In this document: positions 15,358 to 34,230 of the stretch, one piece after another
Layout: every line of letters begins with the position of its first letter
How positions within the stretch are numbered: position 1 is the stretch's first letter
From: an uncultured Clostridia bacterium
GTDB taxonomy: Bacteria; Bacillota; Clostridia; Christensenellales; CAG-917
Assembly (NCBI GenBank): GCA_934277615.1
Contig: CAKQUV010000001.1
Coordinates: forward strand, 206,380 to 270,379
DNA: 64,000 bases
Reading direction: 5' to 3'
The notes under the pieces: generated by a model
Database searches by the model: none
What the model was told of the DNA's origin: nothing
The model's input: the letters and a program-made list of their open reading frames with translations, nothing else
Position numbers and translations under genes: made by a program

Positions 15358-18300
15358 ATGAGAGTATTACGCGGAACTTTGACCTTTATCCTCGGTATGG
15401 TAATCGGCATCATACTTTTCGTTCTTGCAATCGGCGGCGCGGTCTACATAATGGGCACGTCGATGACCGTCGGAGAATTGCAACAAAAATTTACCGATGA
15501 AGAGATTATCGCATCCGACAGCGAGGCGTACGGAAAAACTATTCTCGACGCTGCGCTCAAAGCGTACGACGATTTTAAAAACCTTGATAACCTCACGCTT
15601 GAATCCTTGTATAAATCTTACGGCATCAAAATGCTCAACGGCATTAGCGGCGTGGATTTCACAAACAAGGACTTCTACACCATGCCTTTGACCGAATTGT
15701 TTAAGGACCTGTCCAAAATTACCAATTCGTTTACACTCGATGATGTCGGCACGCTTGCCAAATTGGAATTCCCCGACATTCCCGTCATCGACGACAATCT
15801 TAACGTCGGCATGAAAGACGCCATAAACAATATCCTCGGCTCTATCGACGGAAATCTTACCGTGCGCGATATTCAAGGCAAATTCGGCATAGACATCGGT
15901 CTTGGCGCAAACAAAATGCTGCAAGCGGTGCAAGACGTAAAACTTTCTGCTTTCGGCGATACAATCAACGCGGTGCGCCTTTTCAACCTCATCGACGTGG
16001 ATGTGGACGAATTTATCAAATCGGGCAACAACACTGTTTACGTCAAGCTCGGCGACGACGGCGTTTTTGAAGAAGTAAGCAAGGAAGACCTTGCGCTCAA
16101 GGCAGGATATATCCCGCCCTTCGGCGTGGAAACGTATATTTCCGGGAGCATCGACGCGGACGAAAACGGCAAAGCGGACCACACAATAGAAAGGGAACTC
16201 CGCTACGTTCTGAAAACCAAGACGGACAAGGAAACGGGCGAGGAAACTTCGTCATACGTTGTCGACAACTCCTGTTATGAGGATAATTTCGACGCGGAAA
16301 CCAACGAAACGACGTATTATCGCCACGTTTTGTATTCCGTAAACGACGGCTCTCATACGGTGGAAAATCCCCTGTATTACGTGATTTCCTACGCAAACCG
16401 CATAGATTCTTATACAACCGATACGTTTTCGCTGGTGCAAAAGGGCTTCGCTTCCCTCGACAAACTCACAGTGTACAAAGACGGACAATACGTGCCTGCG
16501 TCGGCGCTTGTCGAGGGCGGCATGCAAACAATCGTCATCAACGACTTTGCGTTTGCCTATGAGAAAGACGGCGCAACGCAATCAAAGCCCGCTTCTCGCT
16601 ACTATATCACCGAATCTCCGATAACCAAAGACAGCCGCCTTCAAGCACTCGAGGACGGCGTAACCATAAGCGGCGATTATCTCATTGCGCACGAGGGCAC
16701 GTCCTCCAAAGTGTTGCAACTTGTGGCGTACATGACCGTTGCGGAACTTGAAAGCGCAGACGATATCCTCGATTCGCTCACAATCGGCGACGTTGTGGAT
16801 ACCGAGGCGGCAGATACCGCAAAAATCCTCAAAACGTTGGCTGATACAAAAATCGGCGAACTCGGCTCGAAAGTCGATACCCTCTCGCTTGCGGAAATGA
16901 CGGATATCACGTTTACGGCATACACGAGAGTGAACGGAGTAGGCGGAAGCTACGTGCTTGTAGAGGACAAAGACTCCGAGGGTAATTTTATCTATGTCAA
17001 CTATGATGACGAAAGCCCCAACAAGAACTACGTATCTCGCTATCGTTATGACAGCGAAACAAAGACATACAAGGCGGACGAAAAAGGCAAGTATATGCGC
17101 GCATATCATTTCACCTTGTACAACCCTGCTTTGCACAACGTTGACGGCAGTGCTCCGACGTACACTTACGATATAAACGAAGGCGCAGTCGAAAATCCCT
17201 CCTCAAAAGTGCTTCAACGCCTCGCATACACCAAAATCAACGACTTCTCCGGCTCGTTCAGTGATTTGTCGCTCGGCGAAGTTATGGATATCGACTCGGA
17301 TTTGTACGTCGTAGACGACGGCGCCGCCGCCGAAAATGCGACGAGATACTATTATGACTCCGCTCTCAACGTCTATATGCGCATAACCGAGAGCAACAAG
17401 GACGAGCATACCGCCGACGCCAAGTACGTCATCTCGAATGAAGGCGCTTCTCAATCCGTGCTCAAACGCCTCGCATTCGTCAAAATCGACGATATGTCCG
17501 ACGCTATGGAACAGATAACCAAAGATATGCTGCTCTCCGAACTCGTTGATATTTACAACGAATACGCAGTGCAAGAAAACACGTCTTTTGACCTCCTTGC
17601 ATACGACGAAACGAAAGATAGATTCTTCATCGAAGATACTGACGGCGACGGATACGTGTTTGCTTACAACGACAAAGGCAAGTACGTCAAAGGCGACTGG
17701 CGCATGGACGCATACGGCGCAGACGAGCTTGCGACAATCGCAGTCAAATATACCGCAACGTCCTATTCATACCAACCGATTACGTCAATCGCGGAGGCAA
17801 AAGCCGCTCTCACCTCTTACAACATCTACTACAAAGGTCAACGAGACGGCGTAACCGTATATGAAAACAATATCGCGCTTTGCTCGTATATCGTCGCGCA
17901 ATCGTTTTCAAGCGGAACGCTCCCCTCGAACACTCTTTATACGAGAGTAAGCAATACCGGTTACGAGAACCCTCAAACGAGCGTCGCTCGCTACGGCTCT
18001 GCGGGTGCGGAAAATATTTACGTGCTTATCAACGGCACTTATATCGCATACGATATGAGCAATCTCGCTCACCTCTCGCAAGACGTTTACTATAAGAAAG
18101 TGACCGCTGCGACAGGCGAAACGATGTATATAAGACAATCTCAACCCGGCATTTTGTCGGGCGCAACAGTCGAAACCGCACAAGACACGTCAAGTGCGAA
18201 ATTTGCAAAATACAAAGCCGAAGCGGTGTATTTCAAGACCACAAGCACAACCAACGCTTACGTCTTTGCAGGCGGTAAATACGTGCCTTATGACGAGAAC

Positions 18301-18807
18301 GTGCACGGCGCTGCGGATAAAAACGAATTGTTTGTCAAAAAGAGCGGATACATCGCGACGCTTACGGAAACGTACCTTGTCAACAACAACGAGGAAAAAG
18401 TGCCTATCCCCTCATCTGGACTTGCCAACACGCCCGTTACGCTCATAAGAGAAAAGAGTCAAGCCGTGCTGCGTATGCTTGCCAGAAAGGAAACGACAAT
18501 CGACACTATCAACACTGCGGTGCAAGAGGCGCAAATAAAAGATATTATGGACGTTGACGAGGACAGTTTGTTCTCGCGTTTCGAGGGCGCTACAATCGAG
18601 CAACTGAGCGACAAGGTGGAAACTTCACTCAAAGAAATGAGCGTCGGCGAATTGCTCGATTACATCAATATCGAGAAAGTCAACCCCGAAGTCAAAGCGG
18701 CTCTCTGCAACGTAACGTTGACCGACTTCTTCAAGAGTTTGGTGCCAAAAGCAGGTATCGGCATCGTTGTGGATATGGAAATTGCCTGCGGTTACAAGAC
18801 AAAATAA
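15358..18807 (+). CDS. large N-terminally anchored extracytoplasmic protein with degenerate internal repeats (function unknown)
   Basis: 1149 aa. N-terminal helix LTFILGMVIGIILFVLAIGGAVYIM. Acidic and Tyr/Thr-rich. About 7-8 copies of a ~30-aa motif (e.g. SKVLQRLAYTKINDFSGSFSDLSLGEVMDI; QSVLKRLAFVKIDDMSDAMEQITKDMLLSELVDI). Confidence 0.75.
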   Translation: MRVLRGTLTFILGMVIGIILFVLAIGGAVYIMGTSMTVGELQQKFTDEEIIASDSEAYGKTILDAALKAYDDFKNLDNLTLESLYKSYGIKMLNGISGVDFTNKDFYTMPLTELFKDLSKITNSFTLDDVGTLAKLEFPDIPVIDDNLNVGMKDAINNILGSIDGNLTVRDIQGKFGIDIGLGANKMLQAVQDVKLSAFGDTINAVRLFNLIDVDVDEFIKSGNNTVYVKLGDDGVFEEVSKEDLALKAGYIPPFGVETYISGSIDADENGKADHTIERELRYVLKTKTDKETGEETSSYVVDNSCYEDNFDAETNETTYYRHVLYSVNDGSHTVENPLYYVISYANRIDSYTTDTFSLVQKGFASLDKLTVYKDGQYVPASALVEGGMQTIVINDFAFAYEKDGATQSKPASRYYITESPITKDSRLQALEDGVTISGDYLIAHEGTSSKVLQLVAYMTVAELESADDILDSLTIGDVVDTEAADTAKILKTLADTKIGELGSKVDTLSLAEMTDITFTAYTRVNGVGGSYVLVEDKDSEGNFIYVNYDDESPNKNYVSRYRYDSETKTYKADEKGKYMRAYHFTLYNPALHNVDGSAPTYTYDINEGAVENPSSKVLQRLAYTKINDFSGSFSDLSLGEVMDIDSDLYVVDDGAAAENATRYYYDSALNVYMRITESNKDEHTADAKYVISNEGASQSVLKRLAFVKIDDMSDAMEQITKDMLLSELVDIYNEYAVQENTSFDLLAYDETKDRFFIEDTDGDGYVFAYNDKGKYVKGDWRMDAYGADELATIAVKYTATSYSYQPITSIAEAKAALTSYNIYYKGQRDGVTVYENNIALCSYIVAQSFSSGTLPSNTLYTRVSNTGYENPQTSVARYGSAGAENIYVLINGTYIAYDMSNLAHLSQDVYYKKVTAATGETMYIRQSQPGILSGATVETAQDTSSAKFAKYKAEAVYFKTTSTTNAYVFAGGKYVPYDENVHGAADKNELFVKKSGYIATLTETYLVNNNEEKVPIPSSGLANTPVTLIREKSQAVLRMLARKETTIDTINTAVQEAQIKDIMDVDEDSLFSRFEGATIEQLSDKVETSLKEMSVGELLDYINIEKVNPEVKAALCNVTLTDFFKSLVPKAGIGIVVDMEIACGYKTK

Positions 18808-21225: not shown

Positions 21226-21415
21226 TGGCGCCTCGGCGTAGTACACCGCACCGCATTTTTCAAATGCGATTCGGGACTCGGACTCCCGAAAAATAGCGGT
21301 GTGTGTAAATGTATTTACATCAACACAACGCGTCCAATTCGGAAGAAGTGTCGTGGCACATAGTGCCGCCGCACAATAGTGCGGCAGGGGTACGATTTCC
21401 ACAACAGGCGAAAAA
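21226..21415 (-). other. hairpin-dense ~190-nt element ending in a tRNA-like ...GAGGCGCCA, with a copy of the tRNA-Asn T-arm
   Basis: Minus-strand read gcctgttgtgg...cgggagtccgagtcccg...gaggcgcca. At least 5 local hairpins (ccgcac/gtgcgg, ggcac/gtgcc, tgtaaat/atttaca, ttcggga/tcccgaa, cgcattt/aaatgcg). The first 7 nt equal the tRNA-Asn 5' end. Confidence 0.3.
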
Positions 21416-21417
21416 AT

Positions 21418-21503
21418 AAAGGAGCGCAATGCGTTCCTTTTGGCGCTTCGACGTGGTACGCCTCAACATAATAAAAGGAACGCGATGCGTTCCTTTTGGC
21501 GCC
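21418..21503 (-). repeat. direct duplication of the tRNA 3' end plus terminator hairpin
   Basis: Minus strand: GCGCCA+aaaggaacgcatcgcgttccttt (21474-21503) is repeated as GCGCCA+aaaggaacgcattgcgctccttt (21418-21446). Confidence 0.6.
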
Positions 21504-21572
21504 TGTTGAGGGACTCGGACCCCCGACACTTCGGTTAACAGCCGAATGCTCTACCGACTGAGCTAAACAGGC
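21497..21572 (-). tRNA. tRNA-Asn (anticodon GTT), CCA encoded
   Basis: Hand-folded cloverleaf: acceptor gcctgtt/aacaggc, D arm gctc-agtcggta-gagc, anticodon arm ttcgg-ctGTTaa-ccgaa, variable loop gtgtc, T arm ggggg-tccgagt-ccctc, discriminator G, CCA. The T-loop has C at position 55, which is non-canonical. Confidence 0.85.
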
Positions 21573-22678: not shown

Positions 22679-23695
22679 ATGGGCGAAGTAATTTTAGATG
22701 CGTTTCTAGATAGTTTGAAGATACTTGCGGTGGTGGTTGTTTTCCAATTTATCATCGCTTTTATCGAGCCGAAACTGTCCGACAAAATAAAACTCAAAGG
22801 CAATCTTGCGCCGCTTATCGGCGTGAGTATTTCGCTATTGCCTCAATGCGGATTCAGTATAGTCGCAACGGATTTATATCAAAAACGTCATCTTACGCTC
22901 GGCACGCTTATTGGCGTATATCTCGCGACTAGCGACGAGGCTTTGCCTATCTTTTTGGGCACGCCTGACAAGGCGTTGCATGTGTTGCCTATAATCGCAC
23001 TAAAATTTGCATTGGGCTTACTCTTCGGATATCTTATCGACCTTGTTATGACCAAAAGTCGCAAGAAAGTGGAACACCACGTCAAGCATTGCGACGAGCA
23101 ATACAAGATAAGACTTACCGACTGCACAAGTGCGGAAGTCGTGCAAAAGAAAGAAGATGACCATTGTGAAAAGTGTGATTGTGAAGATTGCAAGGAATGT
23201 GAACGTTTTGAAGAAGAAAGCATAAAAGAGGAAGAAAACAAAGCCTCTGAAGAAAAAAAGCAAAAGACGGAAAAAGAGCAAAAACTCGACAGATTTTTAT
23301 TCCACCCTCTAAAGCACTCGCTTGAAATATTCGGATACGTATTTGTCGTAAACGTGATTCTTAGCGTGATCATGTATAGAGTCGGGCAAGACAAACTTGT
23401 TGAGTTTTTGACCGCCAACAAATATCTTGCTCCTCTGCTTGCGGTAGTTGTGGGCGCGATTCCAAACTGCGTTTCGTCCGTCGTACTTAGCGAACTTTAC
23501 ATTATGGGCGGACTTGGGTTCGGCGCGACGCTCGGCGGTCTTTGTATGAATGCAGGACTCGGATTTGTGTATCTCTTCAAAGACGTGAAACACACAAAGC
23601 GCAATCTGGCAATCTTTGCGCTGATGTTTGCGATAAGCCTGGTTGTCGCATACGTGTTCTCGGCGATATTCTCGTTTGATACACTCAAATTTTGA
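22679..23695 (+). CDS. ArsP_2-like putative metal/metalloid permease with a Cys/His/Glu-rich cytoplasmic loop
   Basis: 338 aa. Two-fold repeat motifs LLPQCGFS...TSDEALPIF (N half) and IPNCVSSVVLSELY (C half). Central loop HHVKHCDEQ...DDHCEKCDCEDCKECERFEEES. Confidence 0.7.
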   Translation: MGEVILDAFLDSLKILAVVVVFQFIIAFIEPKLSDKIKLKGNLAPLIGVSISLLPQCGFSIVATDLYQKRHLTLGTLIGVYLATSDEALPIFLGTPDKALHVLPIIALKFALGLLFGYLIDLVMTKSRKKVEHHVKHCDEQYKIRLTDCTSAEVVQKKEDDHCEKCDCEDCKECERFEEESIKEEENKASEEKKQKTEKEQKLDRFLFHPLKHSLEIFGYVFVVNVILSVIMYRVGQDKLVEFLTANKYLAPLLAVVVGAIPNCVSSVVLSELYIMGGLGFGATLGGLCMNAGLGFVYLFKDVKHTKRNLAIFALMFAISLVVAYVFSAIFSFDTLKF

Positions 23696-23754
23696 TAATC
23701 GAAAACGAGGAAAAACAAGACAAAATAGCGCAAAATTAAGAGTTTATGTCGCTT

Positions 23755-23814
23755 TGTTGACAACTTGGAAAAGTTGTTGACAATATGTTGACGCAAATGC
23801 ACTTTTTGTCAACA
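23755..23814. promoter_or_regulatory. cluster of four TGTTGAC(A/G)(A/C) / TTGTCAACA 9-mers (variant DnaA-box or operator candidates)
   Basis: tgttgacaa 23755-23763, tgttgacaa 23775-23783, tgttgacgc 23786-23794, ttgtcaaca 23806-23814. A fifth copy is at 23899-23907. Each matches the DnaA box TTATCCACA at 7 of 9 positions. Confidence 0.4.
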
Positions 23815-23889
23815 TAACAACATGCTCTAAACGACAAGATATTGGGCTTGAATAAATGGTAAATAAGCATACTTTGTGGTGGTGGTTGT

Positions 23890-23907
23890 ATTTTCCACTT
23901 GTCAACA
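23890..23907. promoter_or_regulatory. 18-mer attttccacttgtcaaca (two overlapping DnaA-box-like 9-mers), repeated at 34744-34761
   Basis: 17/18 identity with attttccacttatcaaca at 34744-34761. Preceded by tgtggtggtggttgta and followed by a ~48-nt almost pure A/T tract up to the dnaN start. Confidence 0.45.
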
Positions 23908-23965
23908 TTGCTTATTTATGTTATCATTATTAAAAATAAAAGAATAAAAAATATATAGGCGAAAT

Positions 23966-25066
23966 ATGAAACTTATTTGTCAAGGAAACGAATTGAGCGA
24001 CGCTCTCGCAAAAGTTGTAAAGGCACTTCCCGTAAAACGTAATAATCCAATTCTCGACGGTGTAAAACTCACCGCTTTGGGTGATACGCTCACGATTTTT
24101 GCAACCGATCTCGAACTTGCAATTGAAAAGAAAATCAACGCGCAAGTGCTCATTGAAGGCGAAATCGTTGTACCCGGCAAACTTTTTGCGGATTACGCAA
24201 AGAAAATCGAGGAAGAACAAATCGAACTCGACGGCACCGATCCGACAAAACTCATCATCAAGTATCTTGATAGCGAATTGCAAATCAAGTGTATGAGTGC
24301 GGATGAATACCCTGTATTCAAAGAAGTCGATACGCAAAATTCTTTTATCATCCTCAAAAAAGAATTCAAAGACATTATTTCCAAGGTTATATTCAACGTT
24401 GCGGTTGACGAGGCAAGACCTTCCCTCCGCGGCGTGTGCCTCAACATCAAAGACGAAGAGGTTGAAGCTGTCGCATCCGACGGATATCGACTTGCTCTTG
24501 CAAGAGCGCAAATCAAAAACAACGGCATCGTTGACAAAATCGTCGTTCCTTCCAAGAGTATGAACGAGCTTGCTCGTCTTATCGACGAGGGTGAAGAAAC
24601 AATCACCGTCTATGTTGAGAAAAACTATATCATGGTTGACCTCTTCCACACTAAAATCGTTACAAGACTTATCGGTGAGGAATATATCAACTATGAAAAA
24701 ATTATCCCCAGCGTTTTCACCACTGAAGTTACAATCGACAAGAAGCTCTTTGAAAACGCAATCGATCGTGTATCCCTTATCAACCGCACCGAGAAGAAAT
24801 CTTACGTGAAGATGGAAATCAAAGAGGATACAATCTCCCTCAACGCACACAGCGATGACGGCGAAATCAACGAAAAAGTTACCATCGGTCTTAAAGGAAA
24901 AGATCTTACAATCGGTTTCAATTCCAAATACATCATTGACAGCATGCATGCAATCGACGAGCCGTTTGTAACTCTCAACTTCACAACCTCTACGGCACCG
25001 GGAATTATTAAGGGCGAGAGCGACCGTTGGCTGTATCTCATCCTTCCTCTCCGTGTCATCGGTTAA
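23966..25066 (+). CDS. dnaN: DNA polymerase III beta sliding clamp
   Basis: 366 aa of typical three-domain clamp length. MKLICQGNELSDALAKVVKALP..., RPSLRGVCLNI, C-terminal ...LILPLRVIG. Confidence 0.95.
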   Translation: MKLICQGNELSDALAKVVKALPVKRNNPILDGVKLTALGDTLTIFATDLELAIEKKINAQVLIEGEIVVPGKLFADYAKKIEEEQIELDGTDPTKLIIKYLDSELQIKCMSADEYPVFKEVDTQNSFIILKKEFKDIISKVIFNVAVDEARPSLRGVCLNIKDEEVEAVASDGYRLALARAQIKNNGIVDKIVVPSKSMNELARLIDEGEETITVYVEKNYIMVDLFHTKIVTRLIGEEYINYEKIIPSVFTTEVTIDKKLFENAIDRVSLINRTEKKSYVKMEIKEDTISLNAHSDDGEINEKVTIGLKGKDLTIGFNSKYIIDSMHAIDEPFVTLNFTTSTAPGIIKGESDRWLYLILPLRVIG

Positions 25067-25074
25067 AAAACGCG

Positions 25075-25225
25075 CTAAATAGCGACTAACTTTGTCAGTG
25101 CCCCGAGCCCGCCAACTCATTTACGATTAGTAAATTAGGGTTGTCGTTCTCGGGGCACTTTCGCGTTACTCATCTGTTTGGTGAGCTTTTATATATTTTT
25201 TATTATAATTCATCTATTTATCGCG
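25075..25225 (+). repeat. family-A palindromic intergenic element, copy A1
   Basis: ctaaatagcgactaactttgtcag + stem gtgccccgag (25098-25107) + conserved core caactcatttacgattagtaaattagggttg (25113-25143) + stem ctcggggcac (25149-25158) + tttcgcg...ttcatctatttatcgcg. Starts 9 nt after the dnaN stop. Confidence 0.75.
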
Positions 25226-25263
25226 TTTTTATAAGCTTTATTTTTATATGGAATATTCCTTAT

Positions 25264-25464
25264 GTCATTTCGAGCGTTAGCGTGGCAATCAAGGCGTAAG
25301 CCGCACACATAAAGCAAACGATATAGCGAAATTGTGGTAAGAGCTTTATCCTTGTTTGAACTGATAGCGTGTATCGGTTGCGCGGTAGAAGTTGCGAAAA
25401 CAAATACAATAAAGGGACTGCTATTATTATTGCAGTCCCTTTGTAATTATGCCGTTTGAGCAAC
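25264..25464 (+). repeat. family-B element, copy B1 (conserved core plus variable long hairpin)
   Basis: Core gtcatttcgagcgttagcgtggcaatcaaggcgtaagccgcacaca...cgatatagcgaaattgtgg...ctgatagcgtgtatcggttgcgcggtag (25264-25388). Then the nested hairpin gttgc...aaagggactgc-tattattat-tgcagtcccttt...gcaac. Confidence 0.75.
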
Positions 25465-25495
25465 GTGACATGTGTTTAGCATTCGGCGCAATTAC

Positions 25496-26869
25496 TTATC
25501 TATTAAGTATCATATTCTTAATATCCGCAACGGTGATTTTGATGCGCGGATTGGTCTTGATTTCGTCGCTGATTTTATCTCTTGCGTGGATAACCGTCGT
25601 GTGATCTCTGCCGCCAAACATCTCGCCTATCTGCACAAGCGGCATCGGTAAAAGCTCGGTGATAAGGTATATAGCGATCATACGAGGCTCGACGATGTTT
25701 TTGGTTTTCTTTTTTGAAATGATATCCGTTGTGGAAATCTTGAAGTATTTACACACGGCGTCGATAATTCCGCTTGCGTCGGTTGTTTCGCCTTGTTTTT
25801 CTTTGAGGAATCCCGAAAACGCCTCGCTTGCAATCTCTCTTGTTTGAATGGGATTGTTTGTGAGCGAGCTATAGAAGATAATGCGGTTGAGCAAACCTTC
25901 CATTTCTCTGATATTTGACGGAGCAAGCTCTGCAATATACTCTGCCACTTCATCAGAGAGCATAAATTTGGACTGTACTGCTTTGGTTTTGAGGATAGCC
26001 ACCCTTGTTTCGAGGTCCGGCACTTGAATATCCACAATAAGACCGCATCCAAAACGTGTGCGAAGCCTGTCCGACAGCGTTGTTAGGTCTTTTGGCGAAC
26101 GATCGGACGTGAGAATAATTTGTTTATTGTCTTGATACAGGTCGTTGAAGATGTGGAAAAATGCCTCCTGCGTTGCCTCTTTGCCGATAAGGAATTGCAC
26201 GTCATCGACCATAAGCACGTCGCAAGAGCGGTATTTTTCTCTGAAACGGTTATTCTCGTCGTTAGACTTGTTGCGAATGACGCTGATAAGCTCTGTAACA
26301 AGCGTTTCCGCACTCACGTAAAGCACGTTTGCGGACTTCCTGTTTTTGAAAAGATAATTGCCTATTGCATGCAAAAGGTGAGTCTTACCAAGACCTACAC
26401 CCGAGTAGATAAAGAGCGGATTGTAACTTCCGCCGGGGTTTTGAGCAATAGTCTTGCAAGCTGCCAAAGCGTACTCGTTGGATTTGCCCACGACAAAGTT
26501 TTCAAAAGTGTATTTTTCAAGGAACGGGCATTTTTTCTTGCCTTTTTCTTCAGGGGTGAAGTTGGTAACAAAACCCTCGTCCTCTATAAACACGGTTTGT
26601 TTGTTGAGATATTCGTCTTTTTTGTCGGGAGTAATAATAATTACGTCGGTGATTGCGGAATTGAGCGAGTTTACCACTTCTTTTATGGTGTCGCGGTATC
26701 TCGTATCGATTGTGCGTTTTGCGTTTGCGGAAATAGTCGACAATACGATTGCGTTGTCAACAAAGCAAACAGGCTCCAATTTTTCTATCCACACTTCATA
26801 ACTTATCGCTTGTATGGATATGGACAATTCATCCTTTGCGTTTTCCCAAAATTCTTCAATGTTAATCAT
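25496..26869 (-). CDS. dnaA: chromosomal replication initiator DnaA
   Basis: 457 aa. AAA+ Walker A GVGLGKTHLLHAIGN, Walker B LMVDDVQFL, domain IV GGRDHTTVIHARDKI. It lies on the opposite strand to both dnaN and recF. Confidence 0.97.
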   Translation of the reverse strand: MINIEEFWENAKDELSISIQAISYEVWIEKLEPVCFVDNAIVLSTISANAKRTIDTRYRDTIKEVVNSLNSAITDVIIITPDKKDEYLNKQTVFIEDEGFVTNFTPEEKGKKKCPFLEKYTFENFVVGKSNEYALAACKTIAQNPGGSYNPLFIYSGVGLGKTHLLHAIGNYLFKNRKSANVLYVSAETLVTELISVIRNKSNDENNRFREKYRSCDVLMVDDVQFLIGKEATQEAFFHIFNDLYQDNKQIILTSDRSPKDLTTLSDRLRTRFGCGLIVDIQVPDLETRVAILKTKAVQSKFMLSDEVAEYIAELAPSNIREMEGLLNRIIFYSSLTNNPIQTREIASEAFSGFLKEKQGETTDASGIIDAVCKYFKISTTDIISKKKTKNIVEPRMIAIYLITELLPMPLVQIGEMFGGRDHTTVIHARDKISDEIKTNPRIKITVADIKNMILNR

Positions 26870-26876
26870 ATTTTTG

Positions 26877-26904
26877 ATTATATCAAAACGACGGATTTTT
26901 TCAA
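26877..26904 (-). promoter_or_regulatory. candidate dnaA promoter placed for a leaderless mRNA
   Basis: Minus strand: TTGAAA (26904-26899), 16-nt spacer, TATAAT (26882-26877), then caaaaat and ATG (26869). No SD. Confidence 0.45.
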
Positions 26905-26939
26905 GCGAAAATCAAAAAAGAAAACTTAAACACAAGATG

Positions 26940-26968
26940 TTGAAAAAAAACGCTCTCTACGCTATACT
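26940..26968 (+). promoter_or_regulatory. candidate recF promoter placed for a leaderless mRNA
   Basis: TTGAAA (26940-26945), 17-nt spacer, TATACT (26963-26968), then tgtagtgt and ATG 26977. No SD. Confidence 0.45.
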
Positions 26969-26976
26969 TGTAGTGT

Positions 26977-28077
26977 ATGAAAATCCTTTCGCTCGAACTT
27001 CAGAACTTCAGAAACTACCTCGAGGCCGCTGTAAACTTTGCAGACGGTCTTAACGTTTTGTACGGGCAGAATGCGAGCGGAAAGACCAATATGCTGGAAT
27101 CTATATATCTTTGCTCCATTTTCCACTCCCCTCGCACTACAAAGGACAAGGAAATGATTTTGCTTGGCAAAGACAAAGCAAGGGTGAAAATCGCGCTCGA
27201 AAGGAAATTTAGAAAACACACTATAGTCCTTCAAATAGACGCTCAAGGCAAGAAAAAAGTTGCCGTGGACGGTATCCCTGTCAATCGCGCAGGTGAACTT
27301 TTGGGAGTGCTCGGCGTGGTGTTTTTCTCCCCCGATGAAATGAAACTCGTCAAAGAGGCGCCTCAAGAAAGACGCAGATTTTTGGACGTGGGCATATCCC
27401 AACAACAAAAGGCGTATTTTATCGCGCTTCAACGCTACAACAAAACGCTCAAGCAAAAGAACAATCTTCTCAAAGAATACAAGTATCAAAACATAGACGA
27501 TATGCTTGACGTTTGGGATGCGTCGCTTGCAAAAGAAGGCGCGATTATCGTGCAAAAACGAAAGGAATATATAGCCACGTTGAGCGACGCCGCGCGCAAA
27601 TTTCACTTTGCGTTAAGCGGCGAAAAGGAAACTCTTGCCCTCTCGTACGAAAGCGGCGTAAAAACGGATTGTGAGGACAGTCAGCTTGAAAGCAATTTAT
27701 ATTCCTCAATTGTCGCATCAAGGCAAAAAGACAAAGAACTCGGTTTTTGCACTGTCGGACCTCATCGCGACGATATCAAAATCGAAATCAACGGCAAAGA
27801 CAGCCGCAAGTTTGCATCGCAAGGTCAGCAGCGCACCATTGCGCTTGCAATGAAACTCGGTGAAGTGATTATCTACAAAAACGAAATCGGAGAGCCGCCC
27901 GTTTTGCTCCTCGACGACGTGCTTTCCGAACTTGATGAAAACAGACAAACCACCCTACTCAAAATGACGGAAGGTTTCCAAACAATTCTCACCTGCACGG
28001 AATATACTCTTCCGAATAAAGCCAACAAGATAAACATAAAAGACGGCTCGGTTGTAGGTGGAAAAATTAATAGTTAA
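26977..28077 (+). CDS. recF: DNA replication/repair protein RecF
   Basis: 366 aa. MKILSLELQNFRNY, Walker A GQNASGKTNMLESI, signature SQGQQRT, Walker B VLLLDDVLSELD. Confidence 0.95.
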   Translation: MKILSLELQNFRNYLEAAVNFADGLNVLYGQNASGKTNMLESIYLCSIFHSPRTTKDKEMILLGKDKARVKIALERKFRKHTIVLQIDAQGKKKVAVDGIPVNRAGELLGVLGVVFFSPDEMKLVKEAPQERRRFLDVGISQQQKAYFIALQRYNKTLKQKNNLLKEYKYQNIDDMLDVWDASLAKEGAIIVQKRKEYIATLSDAARKFHFALSGEKETLALSYESGVKTDCEDSQLESNLYSSIVASRQKDKELGFCTVGPHRDDIKIEINGKDSRKFASQGQQRTIALAMKLGEVIIYKNEIGEPPVLLLDDVLSELDENRQTTLLKMTEGFQTILTCTEYTLPNKANKINIKDGSVVGGKINS

Positions 28078-28151
28078 TAATTAATAATTTCTGGTGGGCA
28101 AAGCCTTGATGAAAAAATAAGTAAATTACACAAAACATTATTTAAATAATA

Positions 28152-28186
28152 CAAAACACGCATATAAAGTGCGTGTTTTGTATTTT
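28152..28186 (+). terminator. intrinsic terminator after recF
   Basis: aaaacacgc...gcgtgtttt hairpin followed by tgtatttta. Confidence 0.6.
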
Positions 28187-28221
28187 ATAAACAATATATA
28201 TGATTAATTCAGAATTAATAC

Positions 28222-28300
28222 GTTGCGCTATATCGGATTTATATATCACTAATTCTGTTATATTGCGCTACGCTAGATTCCAACGTTTGAATTTGTGGTG
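28222..28300 (-). repeat. degenerate family-B-like fragment
   Basis: gcgctatatcg and cgctagattccaacgtttgaat resemble the reverse complement of the B core (cgatatagcg; gggaatctaggcg / attcc..ggaat hairpin). The spacing differs, so the match is weak. Confidence 0.3.
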
Positions 28301-28446
28301 ATTGTGCGCTAATAGCGCAAGCCTACGGCTTTTATTTGCAACTGCAAATGCAATCACTTCAAAAATATCATCGTTCGGAAACCCTTGCGAGCAAGTTTTC
28401 TCACTCGACATTGGCGCAATATTTATTGCTCCTCGGGAAGACAAGC

Positions 28447-28476
28447 GGAATATTTCGCAATTATTAATTATTAATT
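28447..28476 (+). repeat. 30-nt repeat ggaatatttcgcaattattaattattaatt (copy 1)
   Basis: 29/30 identical to 56189-56218. Ends 5 nt from the parB stop codon. Confidence 0.8.
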
Positions 28477-28481
28477 AATTT

Positions 28482-29381
28482 TTACAGTTTATCGTTATAC
28501 TTCAAGATTTGGACGAGAGCGTAAATTCTGTCAAGGTCGTCCTTATTGAAGTAGTCGATTGTGATACGACCTTTTTGGTCGTTACCAACAAGTTTGACCT
28601 TGGTTGCGAAGATGCGTTTCATATCGCCGACAAACTCTTTGAGTTCCAAAGACATAACGCCTTTTTCTCTCGGACCTGACGGAATGGCTTTTCTCGTGAA
28701 GTACAATCTTACACGGTTTTCGAGGTCGCGTACGGAAAGTTTGTTGTCGCAGGCTTGTTTTGCAAGCGTAACAAGATATTCTTTATCGTCAATCGAGATA
28801 AGCGTTCTTGCGTGTCCGGGGGAGAGCTTGCCTTCTCTGACGAGCTCGGTAACTTCGTCGGGGAGTTGCAAAAGTCGCAATGTGTTGGTTACGTACGGAC
28901 GAGATTTGCCAATACGGGATGCAACTTCTTCTTGAGTGAGCCCGTGATTTTCCATAAGTTCGCGCATACCTTCCGCCGCTTCGATTGCGTTGAGGTCTTC
29001 GCGGTGCAAGTTTTCGATGAGCGAAATCTCTTGTATTTGTTGCGGAGTAAAATCTCTGATGATTGCGGGCACTTTTTTAAGACCTGCGAGAAGGCTGGCT
29101 CTGAAACGACGTTCACCTGCGATGATGAGGTATCTTCCGCCCTCGCTTCTCACCAAAATAAGCGGTTGCAAAACGCCGTATGTGGCAATTGACGTAGCCA
29201 TTTCTTTGAGGCTGTCCTCATCGAACGTTTTTCTCGGCTGATTGGGGTTGCGGTCAATGAGCGTGATATCGATTTCTTGCGCTACGATATCGTCGGAGAT
29301 ATCCACTTTTACATTTTCTTCATTGTCGTTGAAAAGTGCGTTAAAGCCTTTGGAACCAAGTCCGCCTTTTGTATTTGCCAT
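28482..29381 (-). CDS. parB: ParB/Spo0J chromosome partitioning protein
   Basis: 299 aa. ParB box LQPLILV...YLIIAGERRFRA, HTH GLTQEEVASRIGKSRPYVTNTLRLL. AAGGAG RBS. The start lies 3 nt downstream of the parA stop codon (29385-29387). Confidence 0.93.
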   Translation of the reverse strand: MANTKGGLGSKGFNALFNDNEENVKVDISDDIVAQEIDITLIDRNPNQPRKTFDEDSLKEMATSIATYGVLQPLILVRSEGGRYLIIAGERRFRASLLAGLKKVPAIIRDFTPQQIQEISLIENLHREDLNAIEAAEGMRELMENHGLTQEEVASRIGKSRPYVTNTLRLLQLPDEVTELVREGKLSPGHARTLISIDDKEYLVTLAKQACDNKLSVRDLENRVRLYFTRKAIPSGPREKGVMSLELKEFVGDMKRIFATKVKLVGNDQKGRITIDYFNKDDLDRIYALVQILKYNDKL

Positions 29382-29384
29382 ACT

Positions 29385-30140
29385 TCACTCCTTATGTTTT
29401 GATATAAATTCTTGCGCAAGAGCTTTATATGCAAGCGCGCCTGCGCATTTTTCGTCGTAATTGTTTATTGTTTTTGCAAAACTCGGCGATTCCGCAAGCC
29501 GAATATTGCGAGGTATTTTGGTATCGAATACGGCGCTTTTGAATAGCGTTCGCACGTTGTTTTCCACATCTTGCGCAAGTTTGTTGCGCATGCACATAGT
29601 GAGCAGCACTCCGTCGATTTCGAGAGTCGGATTTAGATGCTTTTTCACAAGTCGCACGGTATTGAGCAGTTGATTCATGCCCTCCAAAGCAAAATATTCG
29701 CATTGAAGAGGTACAATCACGCCGTTTGACGCAGCGAGCGCATTGACAAGCAGCAGATTTATGGACGGCGCGCAATCTATAAAGATGTAGTCGTACCTGT
29801 CAAGAACATCGGATAGCACGTTTTTAAGCACGTATTCTCTGTTCTCTTTGTCTTTAAGTTCGAGTTCCGCACCCGTCAAATCCCTTGACGACGGCACAAA
29901 ATCGAAGTCTACACCCTTTCTGATGCAAGGTCTGATATTGCCGGCGCATAGCGCGGTATATATCGAATTATCGACTTTTTTGTCGAACACCCCGAGCGCG
30001 CTTGACGCGTTGGCTTGCGAATCTAGGTCAACGAGCAAAACTTTGTATCCCGAGAGAGCGATATAAGCGGCAAGATTTACACACGAAGTGGTTTTGCCGA
30101 CGCCTCCCTTTTGGTTTGAAAAGGATACGACGTACGCCAT
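29385..30140 (-). CDS. parA: ParA/Soj partition ATPase
   Basis: 251 aa. Deviant Walker A NQKGGVGKTTS, and IFIDCAPS. Confidence 0.93.
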   Translation of the reverse strand: MAYVVSFSNQKGGVGKTTSCVNLAAYIALSGYKVLLVDLDSQANASSALGVFDKKVDNSIYTALCAGNIRPCIRKGVDFDFVPSSRDLTGAELELKDKENREYVLKNVLSDVLDRYDYIFIDCAPSINLLLVNALAASNGVIVPLQCEYFALEGMNQLLNTVRLVKKHLNPTLEIDGVLLTMCMRNKLAQDVENNVRTLFKSAVFDTKIPRNIRLAESPSFAKTINNYDEKCAGALAYKALAQEFISKHKE

Positions 30141-30254: not shown

Positions 30255-30944
30255 TTATAAGGGTTTTTTCTTTATACTCCCATACACTCTTGGGTACTGC
30301 GGCGGAGTTTGTTTTACTTTTTCAAAAACCATAATTGCACGCTTATCCCCGTTTGGTAAATTCAAAAACTTGGTGTGCAAATGCTTTGCGCCAAGCACTT
30401 TCATTGCGTTTTGAGCGCTTTCAAGTTCACTCTCGTCCGTCTTGTACGCAAGGAAAATTCCGCCCACTTTCAAAAACGGCATAGCAAGTTCAAGCAAAAT
30501 CGGAAGTGCGGAAACTGCCCTTGCCGTAACCACGTCGTACTTTGCAAATTGCGTCTTTTGCTCTTCCGCTCTGCCTGCTATCGTTGAGATATTATTTATT
30601 CCAAGCTGCCTTGCGCTTTGCGATACGAACGCCATTTTCTTTGCCGTGGAATCGAGCGCAGTTACCGATACGTCATCTCTTGCAATGGCAATTGGCATAG
30701 ACGGAAACCCACCGCCGGAGCCTATATCGCAAAGTTTTGCGCCGTGCGGAATTTCGCTTATTCCTGCAAGCGAGTCTATGATATGCTTTATGGTAAAGTC
30801 TTTCTCTTCGGTGATTGCGGTGAGGTTGAAAGCCTTGTTGCACTCAACCACTTTTTCATAGTACGAACAAAGCGCTTCCGCTTGATCGGAAGTTATAGTT
30901 GCGCCAACTTGTGCCGCTCCGTTTACAAGAAAGTCTTTATCCAT
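30255..30944 (-). CDS. rsmG: 16S rRNA (guanine527-N7)-methyltransferase RsmG (GidB)
   Basis: 229 aa. SAM motif DIGSGGGFPSMPIA. Sits in the typical gidB-parA-parB context. Confidence 0.92.
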   Translation of the reverse strand: MDKDFLVNGAAQVGATITSDQAEALCSYYEKVVECNKAFNLTAITEEKDFTIKHIIDSLAGISEIPHGAKLCDIGSGGGFPSMPIAIARDDVSVTALDSTAKKMAFVSQSARQLGINNISTIAGRAEEQKTQFAKYDVVTARAVSALPILLELAMPFLKVGGIFLAYKTDESELESAQNAMKVLGAKHLHTKFLNLPNGDKRAIMVFEKVKQTPPQYPRVYGSIKKKPL

Positions 30945-31206
30945 ATGAATATAATAACATTTTTTCTTGCGTTTTTCAAGCGTCGAGCCTCAATATTTAT
31001 AAAGCTATCAATTTGACGTTAAATTGCAAAACACGGTGTTTATATCGTTAAAATTGCAAGATTAAATATCAATATTGCTGTTTGTAATCGAAATTTACAA
31101 AATCTACAACAAAAAGAAAATATACAAATTTGCAAGACATTTTTTGCCCTGCTATTGTACTTAATACGAAATAGTGATAAAATATATAAACAAACGGAGG
31201 CAGTAT

Positions 31207-31929
31207 ATGAGAATTGCAATCGTAACCGCTATGGCGGAAGAAACGTTGCCAATCTTCCAAAAACTCGGCAACGTAGTTGATCAAAGTACAATAGCAGGCG
31301 TAGCTATCAGCAAGATAGAGCTTGACGGCGACACTATATATCTTGCAACGAGCGGCGTGGGCGAGGTCAAAGCCGCGCTTGCCGTGCAATTGCTTGTGGA
31401 TTTGTTCGATGTGGAAATTGTCCTCAACTTTGGCTTTGTCGGAGCGGTGGGCAAATTTGACGTGGGTGAAATCGTCGTGCCGAGAAAGGTCGTGCATTAT
31501 CAATTCGACGTAACGGAAGTGGATACGGATAGAAAGGTCGGACAATACAGCGGCATGGCGGACAACTTCTTCTATCTTGACGAAGTGGTCATCCAAAACG
31601 TGCTTGCCAATATCGGCAAACCCGTCAAACTTGTCAGCGTCGCAAGCGGCGATAAGTTTGTGGCAATCAAAGAAGAAAAACAAAGACTCAAAAGGGAGTT
31701 CGACGCGGACATCTGCGAGATGGAACTTGCAGGGCTTGCCATTGCGTGCGAGCGCAACAACATCCCCCTCTTCTCCGTCAAGGTGGTCAGCGACAACGCC
31801 GAGGAAGGCGCAAACGTGAGTTTTGAAACCGTTATGGCAAAAGGCGTCGCAGGTTACGAGAAGATGTTGCCTGCTATCCTTAAAGCCGTCAAAGAGGGCG
31901 CAAGCGCACTTCCGCCCGTAAAGGAATGA
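31207..31929 (+). CDS. mtnN: 5'-methylthioadenosine/S-adenosylhomocysteine nucleosidase
   Basis: Start at ATG 31207 with GGAGG RBS. MRIAIVTAMAEE...ATSGVGEVKAALAVQLL...NFGFVGAV (PNP_UDP_1 fold). Immediately upstream of luxS, which forms the activated methyl cycle pair. Confidence 0.85.
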   Translation: MRIAIVTAMAEETLPIFQKLGNVVDQSTIAGVAISKIELDGDTIYLATSGVGEVKAALAVQLLVDLFDVEIVLNFGFVGAVGKFDVGEIVVPRKVVHYQFDVTEVDTDRKVGQYSGMADNFFYLDEVVIQNVLANIGKPVKLVSVASGDKFVAIKEEKQRLKREFDADICEMELAGLAIACERNNIPLFSVKVVSDNAEEGANVSFETVMAKGVAGYEKMLPAILKAVKEGASALPPVKE

Positions 31930-31938: not shown

Positions 31939-32367
31939 ATGGAAAAGATAACGTCGTTTACAATCGACCACAACGTGCTTAAAAAGGGTTTTTACCTCAG
32001 CCGTGTGGATAAAAACGTGTTTACATACGATTTGCGCTTTAAAGAGCCGAATAAAGGCGACTATCTTCATATGGCTGCAATGCACACTATAGAGCATTTA
32101 TTTGCCACTGTTGTGCGCAACAGCGCGTATAAGGATAAAGTTGTGTATTTCGGCCCTATGGGCTGCAGAACGGGCTTTTATTTGCTTTTGTTCGATACGG
32201 ACAAAGATGAGGCACTCGCGCTCACCAAAGAGTGCGTCGCAAAATGCCTCGAACTCGATACGATCCCCGGTAGCAAGAAAATCGAGTGCGGAAACTACCG
32301 CTCTCACAACCTTGCCGGCGCAAAGAAAGAATTGTCCGAATATCTTGACGTCCTCAACACCCTGTGA
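31939..32367 (+). CDS. luxS: S-ribosylhomocysteine lyase LuxS
   Basis: 142 aa. Metal site HTIEHL and GCRTGFY. Confidence 0.93.
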   Translation: MEKITSFTIDHNVLKKGFYLSRVDKNVFTYDLRFKEPNKGDYLHMAAMHTIEHLFATVVRNSAYKDKVVYFGPMGCRTGFYLLLFDTDKDEALALTKECVAKCLELDTIPGSKKIECGNYRSHNLAGAKKELSEYLDVLNTL

Positions 32368-32483
32368 AACAGAGCTGAGTTGATATCTATATGTAAAAAA
32401 GTTTGTGTGCCGATATATTGTAATAAATCAAATACGAGTTTAGTGATAAATACTCATAACATAACATTTAAAAACGCACGGAT

Positions 32484-32515
32484 AACAGGTTGACGAAGCG
32501 TCAGCCTGTTTTTTC
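32484..32515 (+). terminator. intrinsic terminator after luxS
   Basis: aacaggttgacg-aagc-gtcagcctgtt followed by tttt. Confidence 0.7.
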
Positions 32516-32924
32516 ACTTTTACAATGAGTTATATTTCAACAAAACGAAAAAATAATAGTTTATAAGTAAACTATTATAACATATATAAACATATTGAAA
32601 TAGTGTGATAAACAGGGAAAACTCAGGTACATAAAACAATACGTGATTTTGATAATTGCCGAATATGGGTAAATAGTGTAAATAGTGTAAATAGCATGAA
32701 TATGTAAAAAAATATTGTGTTAAGTATAAGAAGGCTTAATTTGAATTGTAAATAGTAATTCATAGGTATAATTGTAATAATGTCATATTTATAAAGTGCC
32801 GATATTGCGGTCTGATAAGAATATATAAATAGACGGAGTGATTTAAACAAAGAGAGAAAAGCATATACTCACCGCCATTCTGTTTGTGATTAATTATGAT
32901 GATTTTTTGACATTTATCTCATAT

Positions 32925-32940
32925 TGTTTCACGTGTAACG
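32925..32940. promoter_or_regulatory. parS-like site tgtttcacgtgtaacg
   Basis: 14/16 match to the Firmicute parS consensus TGTTNCACGTGAAACA. Confidence 0.6.
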
Positions 32941-33051
32941 TATAGAAAAGCAAATATCAAGTTTCTACGAAATAAGCAAAATTATTAAATAAAAGCGTGC
33001 CGAGGTTTTAACTAAACTCGATACACTTGCTTTTATATTTGCGATTTGTAT

Positions 33052-33719
33052 TTATATATTATACCGAGAAATCGTTCGATGATATTCGTATATCGTATAC
33101 GTTGCTTTATAGTGATGTTGCCGATTATCTATCCGAGATTTGGCTCGATAATCGAGTAATCTCCCATTATCGTTCCATTCGCCGTACATAATACCCTTCC
33201 TTGTATTCTCGACAAATTTTGCCAGTCGTGATTGATAAAGTTCGAGTCGATGTTTGTTGAATTGAATTGTGTCTATTCTCACTCTTTGATATAGCGGCGG
33301 AAAACTCAAAAAGTTTTGCCACACAACGTTATCTGATTGCAGCAGGATTAATATATCTTGATTTATAACAAAACCACTCTCTGACATATCCGGTAACGCA
33401 GCTCTTCCGCTATCCGTCATAAGGCCGAGCTTCTCAAGCCTTCTGCAACGCTCATTATTAAGTTCTGTCCGGTTGCTGTTTTTCTACGCTTTGCAAAACG
33501 CTGCGCGGTGCTAGTATCCGATATTTTCTTTTGGGTGCTGTCAATCCAACCAAAGCATAGGGCTTCTTCAACCGCATCAATATACCAAAACGTAGTGCTA
33601 TCTGTAGGGCGACCTCTTTTAACTATTGCCCGGCATTCGTTTTCTTTCGAGTGATTATCCGTAAGCCACCCTCGGAACTCATATCTATTTTTGACGTTAA
33701 GCAAGTTTATTGTTTCCAT
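33052..33719 (-). pseudogene. YdeI/OmpD-associated family gene split by a 1-nt frameshift in an A5 run
   Basis: ORFs 33417..33719 and 33052..33420 encode the N and C halves of one YdeI-like protein. The second frame already reads KNSNRTELNNERCRRLEKLGLMTDSG upstream of its ATG. An A6 in place of the A5 (rc of 33479-33483) would restore a single ORF. Confidence 0.7.
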
Positions 33720-33785
33720 ATGCCGATTATACCACTATATATCGGAGTGGTCAATATTCCGCAAAAATCTATAAAAACGCAAAAT

Positions 33786-33801
33786 TGTTTCACGTGTAAC
33801 G
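33786..33801. promoter_or_regulatory. parS-like site tgtttcacgtgtaacg
   Basis: Same 16-mer as 32925-32940. Embedded in a 24-nt perfect direct repeat attgtttcacgtgtaacgtataga. Confidence 0.6.
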
Positions 33802-33870
33802 TATAGAGAAAATAGGCTAAACTCATACTAAATAGTAGAAGAGTAGCATGTTTTTGTGCATTAATCAAAA

Positions 33871-33888
33871 TGTGGATAATATGGATAA
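33871..33888. promoter_or_regulatory. two tandem DnaA boxes
   Basis: TGTGGATAA (perfect complement of TTATCCACA) is immediately followed by TATGGATAA (8/9). A further AGTGGATAA lies at 34021-34029. Confidence 0.55.
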
Positions 33889-34197
33889 TGATCAAATTGC
33901 GGGTAGAATTATATAATTTGATTATTACTACTTAGCATCTAATTGCAATTATTAGTCGGTGTTATTTTGACGATATTCAATCGTACTATAACAACCGCAA
34001 TATCAATAATTTACGTGTATAGTGGATAAACAATTATTGCCTCAAATTGAGAATAAAAACAAAGGCAAACATCACTAAAAACTGTATAAATCGAGATAAA
34101 AGCGCAACGAGAGCATGCGGTGTTTGATTGAAAGTAATAATAGTGATATGAGTGATAATATGGTGTGTTTATCGGAGAAATCGATGTAAAACGTCTA

Positions 34198-34213
34198 TGT
34201 TTCACGTGTAACA
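34198..34213. promoter_or_regulatory. parS-like site tgtttcacgtgtaaca
   Basis: 15/16 match to TGTTNCACGTGAAACA. Confidence 0.7.
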
Positions 34214-34230
34214 ATTTGATTTTCGAACCC

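Follow-up and report, generated by a model that had tools for sequence, protein, structure and literature searches.

The gene order rnpA-rpmH-dnaA-dnaN-recF-gyrB is among the most conserved in bacteria and is used as an anchor for origin prediction. In Bacillus subtilis the gene that adjoins oriC is rpmH, not parB, and in Escherichia coli dnaA is uncoupled from oriC. The conserved origin context has been described as rnpA-rpmH-dnaA-dnaN; Firmicutes origins are bipartite (oriC1 and oriC2), with DnaA boxes in both spacers that flank dnaA, and oriC2, which lies upstream of dnaN, is the unwinding site in Clostridioides difficile and likewise in B. subtilis (PMC7561715). The rule for a basal unwinding system (BUS) is a DnaA box with at most 2 mismatches and at least 3 DnaA-trios (3'-NAN-5') no more than 16 bp from the box (PMC8287927). 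In cyanobacteria oriC is linked to dnaN, dnaA has moved away, and the box is TTTTCCACA (PMC4009838). Origin-proximal inversions are known as "X-alignments" (Eisen et al. 2000, as cited in PMC2828477 and PMC7416660). Here we describe a locus in which dnaA is inverted and lies between dnaN and recF. It is contained in a 64,000-nucleotide stretch (the window, GC content ~47%) of contig CAKQUV010000001.1 from an uncultured Clostridia bacterium of the Christensenellales.

Two parts of the window recur below: M1, a DnaA-box-like cluster with an AT-rich stretch just upstream of dnaN, and M2, a module with DnaA boxes and parS-like sites that lies 10 kb from M1. We consider it probable that the whole explanation of the locus is a real, old, inherited and lineage-wide layout in which dnaA is uncoupled from M1 and to which the repeats in the spacers are unrelated. 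Our literature search found nothing on origin organization in the Christensenellales; origin-proximal rearrangement and dnaA-oriC uncoupling are known elsewhere, as in cyanobacteria and E. coli, and for Firmicutes of this group that search yielded no description of them.

Gene order around dnaA and its inheritance

Gene identities were taken from NCBIfam matches above the curated cut-off unless stated otherwise in Table 1, with Pfam for the remainder. They agree with the gene names, coordinates and strands that an earlier note on this DNA gave for the origin gene set, and with its view that the set departs from the Firmicutes norm and has been shuffled into blocks: the shuffled layout around dnaA is real. 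The dnaA gene is convergent with dnaN and divergent from recF. As in the canonical Firmicutes cluster, the gene set lies together (within 31 kb), and gyrB-gyrA and rpmH to mnmG are kept as blocks. However, the canonical dnaA is immediately upstream of dnaN and co-oriented with it, whereas the window dnaA is downstream of dnaN and inverted; and rpmH-rnpA, canonically adjacent to and divergent from dnaA, begins 22 kb away. Downstream of dnaN, recF, gyrB and gyrA have their usual order and strand, but the series is interrupted: dnaA (minus strand) is intercalated between dnaN and recF, and between recF and gyrB sit parB-parA-rsmG (minus strand), mtnN-luxS, a 2.5-kb AT-rich region and hlyIII. The canonical run jag-mnmE-mnmG-rsmG-(noc)-parA-parB is broken, jag-mnmE-mnmG spanning 50.8-55.0 kb on the plus strand and rsmG-parA-parB lying 22 kb from mnmG on the other strand, so that the rpmH to mnmG block is 18 kb from rsmG and opposite to it. 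The origin gene set of the window has no yaaA. The canonical layout with which the earlier note made its comparison put parB beside oriC, where B. subtilis has rpmH.

The 107-bp dnaA/recF spacer (26870-26976) has a promoter in each direction, TTGAAA-16-TATAAT on the minus strand and TTGAAA-17-TATACT on the plus strand, and contains no DnaA box with 1 or fewer mismatches. None is present in the dnaN-dnaA spacer (25067-25495) either, so unlike the bipartite oriC that flanks dnaA (PMC7561715), this dnaA has such boxes in neither flanking spacer.

Could the flipped dnaA and the block order be a short-read artefact created across repeats, as the earlier note allowed? Several of the junctions are flanked by repeats, and many short-read Logan contigs with jag end at ~7 kb, which corresponds to the rpmH-mnmG block between repeat-bearing spacers. 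But at least 10 independent assemblies, made with various assemblers from separate samples, share these junctions, as do six sister-species assemblies, ~30 GTDB species representatives and a closed metagenome-assembled genome (MAG), and the dnaA-recF junction has no repeat at all; we regard a chimera as extremely improbable. An identical DnaA protein is encoded on 16 contigs; the long ones among them (89, 110 and 320 kb), which differ in sample and assembler, match the window gene for gene over a neighborhood of 21 kb. The right half of the window (gyrB to past mnmG) is the same on 10 contigs and its left edge is the same on 10 contigs. In the sister species (Jag 84% identical) six independent assemblies have an identical treC-fprA-uppP-ychF-argS / rpmH to mnmG / pgm-trxB-asnS order, and the closed chromosome of a congener (L018, CP091723.1 positions 821986-843353, labelled long-read, DnaA 89% identical) reads recF< dnaA> <dnaN <arsP. 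These comparisons demonstrate that the layout is fixed in the species and the genus; we read it as a genuine rearrangement that has been inherited vertically.

Dozens of the Logan contigs with jag are 6.9-7.3 kb long, and in 72 of 124 index blocks with P0060 the longest contig that carries it is 5-10 kb; rpmH-mnmG therefore assembles as an island whose two ends are cut at repeat-bearing spacers. In CP091723.1 (1,647,214 bp) the dnaN/dnaA locus is at ~830-833 kb, less than 10 kb from the midpoint of the record at 823.6 kb, a 1-2% coincidence if the record start is arbitrary; this position may reflect rotation by the depositors and is not used as evidence here.

The closest records are labelled Christensenella sp. 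UBA767/UBA7571, Firmicutes bacterium CAG:475 and Christensenellales bacterium. When the window proteins were mapped onto 48 loci from GTDB species representatives, the recF/dnaA/dnaN/arsP core was found, two exceptions apart, throughout the loci whose DnaA is 68-100% identical, and arsP is repeatedly the neighbor of dnaN in the family loci. One exception is a clade of four loci (L038, L040, L043 and L047, the L038 group) that reads dnaN> dnaA> recF> and differs from the window in the orientation of dnaA only; the other is L037, with its arsP-dnaN block turned round. L044, the next outgroup, reads recF< dnaA> dnaN> (its dnaA/recF spacing is likewise 107 bp), L046 (44% identity) reads dnaN< dnaA> recF<, and the Acutalibacteraceae loci (L050-L055) have the canonical mnmE-mnmG-rsmG-noc-parA-parB-dnaA-dnaN-recF-gyrB-gyrA order. 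The dnaN> <dnaA recF> core thus marks a clade that spans ~30% DnaA divergence. In a neighbor-joining tree of DnaA (100 bootstraps) the window type groups with L037 in 92%, the L038 group is recovered in 100%, and both of these together with L044 in 100% of replicates.

By parsimony these arrangements could be linked in a hypothetical chain, each step of which would be one short inversion that broke next to dnaA, to dnaN or to the module upstream of dnaN. Inversion of dnaA-M1-dnaN would turn the canonical dnaA-[M1]-dnaN-recF order into the L044 type, inversion of M1-dnaN would turn the L044 type into the window type, and the L038 type could be reached by inversion of dnaA alone. The tree tempers this scheme in that it is built on one protein, DnaA, and that the branching among window type, L038 group and L044 (window type and L038 group as sister pair) has 56% bootstrap support; because of the latter value any order of the inversions is tentative. 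In such a chain dnaA would have been uncoupled from M1, which would always travel with dnaN, and would now be transcribed towards dnaN from its own box-free promoter; further rearrangements would have redistributed rsmG-parA-parB, the rpmH to mnmG genes and the parS/DnaA-box module M2. The proposed inversions resemble X-alignment inversions in that their breakpoints are at origin-proximal genes and related lineages differ by inversions, but they are very short (1-3 genes), the orientation relative to neighbors is lost, and they are not of the classic symmetric kind.

The window-type dnaA promoter is box-free, but the L038 group, whose dnaA runs in the same direction as dnaN, has a perfect DnaA box, TGTGGATAA, that adjoins a TATAAT 15-24 nt ahead of the start of dnaA (L038 9977-9985, same place in the other three loci). 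A site-specific invertible switch for dnaA was considered and rejected, as there is no flanking inverted repeat and dnaA has one orientation in all assemblies; no integrase or transposase domain was found among the window proteins with family matches. An inverted repeat around dnaA in L038 (9692-9726 and 11376-11410) was likewise rejected as an inversion signature: it consists of two similar palindromic terminators and is absent in L040, L043 and L047.

The dnaN-dnaA interval is an insertion hotspot. It is ~50-80 bp long in L039 and L034, 429 bp in the window and 2-8.4 kb in congeners, where it holds unrelated chromosomal genes (spo0A and proS in L011; psuK, psuG and a Sel1-repeat protein gene in L019; psuG in L029). 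The 8.4 kb between dnaA and dnaN in L011 (97% DnaA identity, positions 8161-16584) encode a Cthe_2159-domain protein, Spo0A, a zinc-ribbon protein and ProS, with A elements (below) after genes; either this segment was translocated to the junction very recently, or the contig, which belongs to a MAG mislabelled Butyrivibrio crossotus, is chimeric.

Candidate origin modules

The window contains 12 TGTTGACA sites where 2.1 are expected, and four of these are in M1 within 150 bp (23755, 23775, 23807 and 23900). The proximal M1 boxes form a tandem, TTTTCCACT from 23891 and TTGTCAACA from 23899, with 2 mismatches each and a one-base overlap; they end at 23907 and are followed by a 4-nt spacer and then TTATTTATGTTATCATTATTAAAA. 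The M1 box positions (-225, -211, -192/-181 and -161) are conserved in 19-20 family loci, and TTTTCCACTTGTCAACA, the short spacer and the AT-rich run are invariant in 19-20 loci in which the upstream neighbor is arsP, parB or dnaA. Sister species have the canonical TTATCCACA where the window species has TTGTCAACA, and in L044 M1 lies between dnaA and dnaN. A scan by the BUS rule found in M1 a tandem pair of boxes with no more than 2 mismatches, a spacer of 4 nt after the second box and 12 nt after the first, and at least 3 trios within 16 bp (triplets TTA TTT ATG TTA TCA TTA TTA; 4 consecutive, 6 of 8).

From its position just upstream of dnaN, like oriC2 in the canonical bipartite origin, and from its sequence, M1 is a candidate oriC2/BUS-type unwinding module, and by homology with the oriC2 of the Bacillus/Clostridioides dnaA-dnaN spacer it would be the likeliest unwinding site. 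It shares with the described BUS (PMC8287927, PMC6669920) the tandem boxes in TTATCCACA orientation, the 4-nt spacer, central-A triplets on the complementary strand and the AT-rich run, but its boxes have 2 mismatches, its trios are of AAT type rather than GAT, and the same sequence doubles as a promoter. The cluster of boxes that stays by dnaN recalls the dnaN-linked oriC of cyanobacteria, and the proximal box TTTTCCAC(T) resembles TTTTCCACA; on the other hand, the window dnaA has only crossed to the far side of dnaN, a shift of ~1.5 kb, the lineage belongs to the Firmicutes, and the origin role of M1 is that of a candidate which the strand bias does not support.

M2 lies within the AT-rich region between luxS and hlyIII. 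Its tandem DnaA boxes, TTATCCATA/TTATCCACA, are at 33871-33888, and further boxes are at 34021 and 34753. Four parS-like sites are present (32925, 33786, 34198 and 34231), the last two as a ~33-bp pair. Such a pair, 31-33 bp apart, is seen in most family loci despite changing neighbors (window 34198-34246; L015 990/1023; L018 1342/1375; L039 1192/1223; L044 668/701). Two minus-strand open reading frames (ORFs), an OmdA/YdeI-like one at 33052-33420 and a DUF8412 one at 33417-33719, form a cassette (33052-33719) bracketed by 27-nt direct repeats, ATTGTTTCACGTGTAACGTATAGA(A/G)AA, over 32923-33810; each repeat holds a parS-like site, and the arrangement suggests that a duplication or an insertion took place within this AT-rich stretch. 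A single 137-aa DUF8412 ORF is called in L002 in place of the 100-aa one, and for this reason reading frames may differ between strains.

Where, then, does replication start? For a strand map, 10 kb to the left of the window (L058) was joined to it, and genes were called by codon usage with a caller that reproduced the database calls; two congeneric loci from a metagenome scan (L066 and L067) extend the left part of the map by ~10 kb only. Within the window, codon usage (C-ending codons in housekeeping genes) dominates both the GC skew and the GC3/AT3 skew of four-fold sites, and these skews are uninformative. The earlier note had remarked that plus-strand genes predominate on both sides of dnaA and that this is unlike a simple mid-window origin, and both remarks hold: gene-strand bias does not switch at M1 or M2, and co-orientation of coding bases is 52-54% for a switch at M1 (23.8 kb) or M2 (34.3 kb) and 82% for one near -1 to -2 kb, at the ftsH< / >ABC divergence. 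This value hinges on one 20-kb surface-protein gene cluster made up of a few transcription units. The cluster (26-18807 plus the ABC gene to its left) is all on one strand and encodes very large predicted surface proteins (1041, 2149, 579 and 1149 aa) that carry Big_2, Flg_new, MBG_2 and VanZ domains, together with a YyaC-like DUF1256 gene (13764-14339) and a CvpA-like gene, and its orientation relative to dnaN is kept in the distant L032 and L039; it is because of this cluster that the strand pattern disagrees with an origin at dnaN. Between the cluster and M1, tRNA-Asn and abcF (19-21.6 kb) point left. The tRNA-Asn gene (minus strand, 21387-21572 area) is the only RNA gene in the window, and two copies of a 29-nt hairpin-like sequence (21418-21446 and 21474-21502) adjoin or overlap its 3' end, within a 137-nt imperfect palindrome.

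Several observations weigh against M1 as the origin. Besides the low co-orientation at 23.8 kb, the genes of L032, L035 and L039 converge on the dnaN-dnaA junction. The distal M1 boxes of the window species (TGTTGACAA) have 2 mismatches. The BUS rule is a permissive one, as M2 and several intragenic sites also pass it. Finally, the invariant core of M1 is a good sigma-70 promoter for dnaN (TTGTCA-17-TATCAT with an extended -10), and because the invariant part doubles as a promoter, its conservation could reflect DnaA-regulated transcription only. This last point is shared by the view that the origin lies beyond dnaN, in which the window would be on one replichore, replication would start at or beyond the ftsH-ABC divergence ~1 kb to the left, or further, M1 would be only a DnaA-regulated dnaN promoter, and dnaA, dnaN, gyr, rpmH and par would all be at least 25 kb from oriC. 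The co-orientation peak at about -1 to -2 kb fits this view, as do the congener genes further left, which are mostly on the minus strand. Yet the ftsH-ABC spacer has no DnaA box with 1 or fewer mismatches, all four parS sites and all DnaA-box clusters are within the window, the L038 group has 85-88% of its coding bases co-oriented to the right of M1, and the peak depends on the surface-protein cluster while tRNA-Asn and abcF run leftward. We consider such a displaced origin rather unlikely.

M2 could instead be the origin, alone or with M1, 10 kb off, as a stretched bipartite origin with dnaN-dnaA-recF-parBA-rsmG-mtnN-luxS in the loop. M2 has the only perfect intergenic DnaA box of the window, in a tandem pair with CTA-rich trinucleotides nearby, in the region of lowest GC content and among the four parS-like sites; rsmG/parA/parB (minus) and gyrB/gyrA (plus) diverge around it; and origins in Firmicutes are bipartite (PMC7561715). 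Its recurrence in relatives is uneven: a DnaA box ~330-400 nt from the parS pair recurs in some relatives only, L032 having four boxes within 82 bp beside parS, but boxes near parS are absent in L015, L018, L026, L030, L036, L039 and L044. The tandem boxes are 24 nt from a trio-like run, a distance that exceeds the 16 bp of the BUS rule except when a 2-mismatch box is allowed; a switch at 34.3 kb gives a co-orientation of 52%; and in B. subtilis DnaA-box clusters at places other than oriC are known regulators (PMC3245932). An origin that includes M2 in this way also seems doubtful to us. Because the strand bias fits neither M1 nor M2 as the switch point, our rough weights are spread over the sites: M1 is a real possibility that falls somewhat short of an even chance, and we think it unlikely, to about the same degree for each, that the origin is at M2 (or at M1 plus M2) or elsewhere.

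Dispersed repeat modules

The repeat modules A, B and C and a 30-mer with two copies are at the places where the earlier note had put them (Table 1), but its statement that almost every block border carries one, which implied a role in the shuffling, does not stand. Of the 15 intergenic regions that are 150 bp or longer, 5 hold A/B/C; these modules are found at 3 of 10 departures from canonical order (dnaN-dnaA, argS-rpmH and mnmG-pgm), also in two ordinary spacers (treC-fprA and ychF-argS), and at none of the borders arsP-dnaN, dnaA-recF, rsmG-mtnN, luxS-hlyIII and hlyIII-gyrB. To the left of the window they recur in at least two more places, after guaA and between araC and dut (L058). Congeners carry the modules in other spacers and in other copy numbers and orientations. 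In sister-species strains a tandem A array after argS varies in length, and the sister species has a C copy after mnmG that is opposite to that of the window, with the same gene order. In loci with DnaA identity of 78% or less (L032-L047) A/B/C are undetectable, and the core dnaN> <dnaA recF> is nonetheless kept in the module-free L032-L036 and L039; relatives that lack the repeats and share the order were what the earlier note had named as evidence against a role for them.

Recombination between copies of A, B, C or the 30-mer could in principle have inverted or translocated the blocks, given the modules at the three borders above and the inverted C copies (48015-48396 and 55780-56181) that bracket rpmH-mnmG. 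But species in which the C copy that follows mnmG is reversed and the numbers of A copies differ have an unchanged order, the rpmH-mnmG block has one orientation in all assemblies, dnaA has no flanking inverted repeat, five borders are module-free while non-border spacers and sites left of the window carry modules, and the module-free relatives keep dnaN> <dnaA recF>; we reject a role for the repeats. Repeat-mediated shuffling is in our judgment highly unlikely. The modules and the 30-mer appear rather to be dispersed hairpin-forming intergenic elements that settle in long spacers, and a causal role for them is not supported.

Element A folds into a hairpin of ~100 nt (~105), with z-scores between -5 and -8.5; a comparison of 18 copies shows compensatory changes at 24 of its 30 base pairs, the apical loop is conserved, and its conserved flanks are GCGAATAACTG..GTCAG ... 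CTTTCCTTGTTCTTCATCT. It closely follows stop codons, occurs in both orientations and can be repeated in tandem arrays of strain-dependent length. Copies of B and C are 66-87% identical, B lying upstream of rpmH and of the fprA-like gene, and further copies are present left of the window (L058 954-1029 and 2412-2581). Rfam has no family for element A; tRNA-Asn alone passed the gathering thresholds, and spurious microRNA-hairpin matches to A were seen at E<1. Repetitive extragenic palindromic sequences (REP), bacterial interspersed mosaic elements (BIME) and miniature inverted-repeat transposable elements (MITE) are dispersed palindromic elements. A/B/C are like them in hairpin structure, intergenic dispersal and presence that varies between close relatives, and the ~100-nt palindromic A further in its occurrence in either orientation and its strain-variable copy number, but element A has no sequence relation to the named families. 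No A-associated transposase was seen in the ~100 kb of genome viewed, in which no dedicated search for one was made.

Table 1. Features of the window, and copies of element A in related loci.
Feature	Position	Strand	Evidence and remarks
arsP-like permease	22679-23695	+	NF037962, 235 bits; upstream neighbor of dnaN, in the usual dnaA slot
M1	23696-23965	+	~300 nt; DnaA-box-like cluster and AT-rich stretch in arsP-dnaN spacer
dnaN (beta clamp)	23966-25066	+	TIGR00663, 255 bits (cut-off 137.7)
dnaN-dnaA convergent spacer	25067-25495		A1 25075-25182; B1 25258-25391; terminator-like hairpin 25414-25443
dnaA	25496-26869	-	TIGR00362, 488 bits (cut-off 344); opposite to dnaN and recF
dnaA/recF divergent promoter spacer	26870-26976		107 bp
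recF	26977-28077	+	TIGR00611, 359 bits
recF-parB spacer	28078-28481		palindrome 28124-28209; 30-mer 28447-28484
parB	28482-29381	-	NCBIfam above cut-off
parA	29385-30140	-	ParA-family models below cut-offs; backed by Pfam CbiA, MipZ, AAA_31
rsmG	30255-30944	-	NCBIfam above cut-off
mtnN-like nucleosidase	31174-31929	+	Pfam PNP_UDP_1 on identical contigs
luxS	31939-32367	+	Pfam LuxS on identical contigs
AT-rich region	32368-34931		2.5 kb, 34-36% GC; contains M2
M2	~33.85-34.25 kb		inside the AT-rich region
hlyIII/PAQR-family membrane protein	34932-35723	-	family match
gyrB	35886-37796	+	NCBIfam
gyrA	37807-40386	+	NCBIfam
treC-like, fprA-like, uppP (-), ychF, argS			between gyrA and rpmH, in that order
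A2 and B2	42135-42541	+	A2 42135-42240; B2 42404-42541; treC-fprA spacer, no origin-set border
C1	45795-46067	+	ychF-argS spacer, no border
argS-rpmH spacer	47858-48786		A3 47887-47950 (inverted, partial); C2 48015-48396 (inverted); B3 48423-48587
rpmH-rnpA-yidD-yidC-jag-mnmE-mnmG block	48787-54983	+	NCBIfam (rnpA, yidC, jag, mnmE)
rpmH	48787-48921	+	read directly from sequence
yidD	49214-49504	+	Pfam
mnmG	ends 54983	+	Pfam GIDA
mnmG-pgm spacer	54984-56226		A4 55522-55627; C3 55780-56181; second 30-mer 56189-56226
Element A in L058	673-787
Element A in L060	1108-1224, 4878-4992, 6772-7157, 14660-14765

Meaning of the arrangement

Genome-rotation tools that start at dnaA assume that dnaA marks the origin, and for these MAGs caution is in order when dnaA is taken as position 1 or as the origin in coverage-based estimates of growth rate. 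The repeats, for their part, are to be read as ordinary dispersed hairpin elements and not as rearrangement scars. It is possible, though rather unlikely, that the initiator gene is now apart from the origin, with M1 and M2 acting together across 10 kb or with a start at a box-free site at least 25 kb from all classical markers; if a split or displaced origin of this kind is real, the architecture would be one undescribed for the Firmicutes, and the dnaA/dnaN junction would be a recurrent hotspot of inversion and insertion. A flipped dnaA in a lineage common in human and animal guts means that the initiator gene and the DnaA-box module are separable in Firmicutes, as they are in cyanobacteria, and the lineage is a natural test of which half of the bipartite origin is indispensable.

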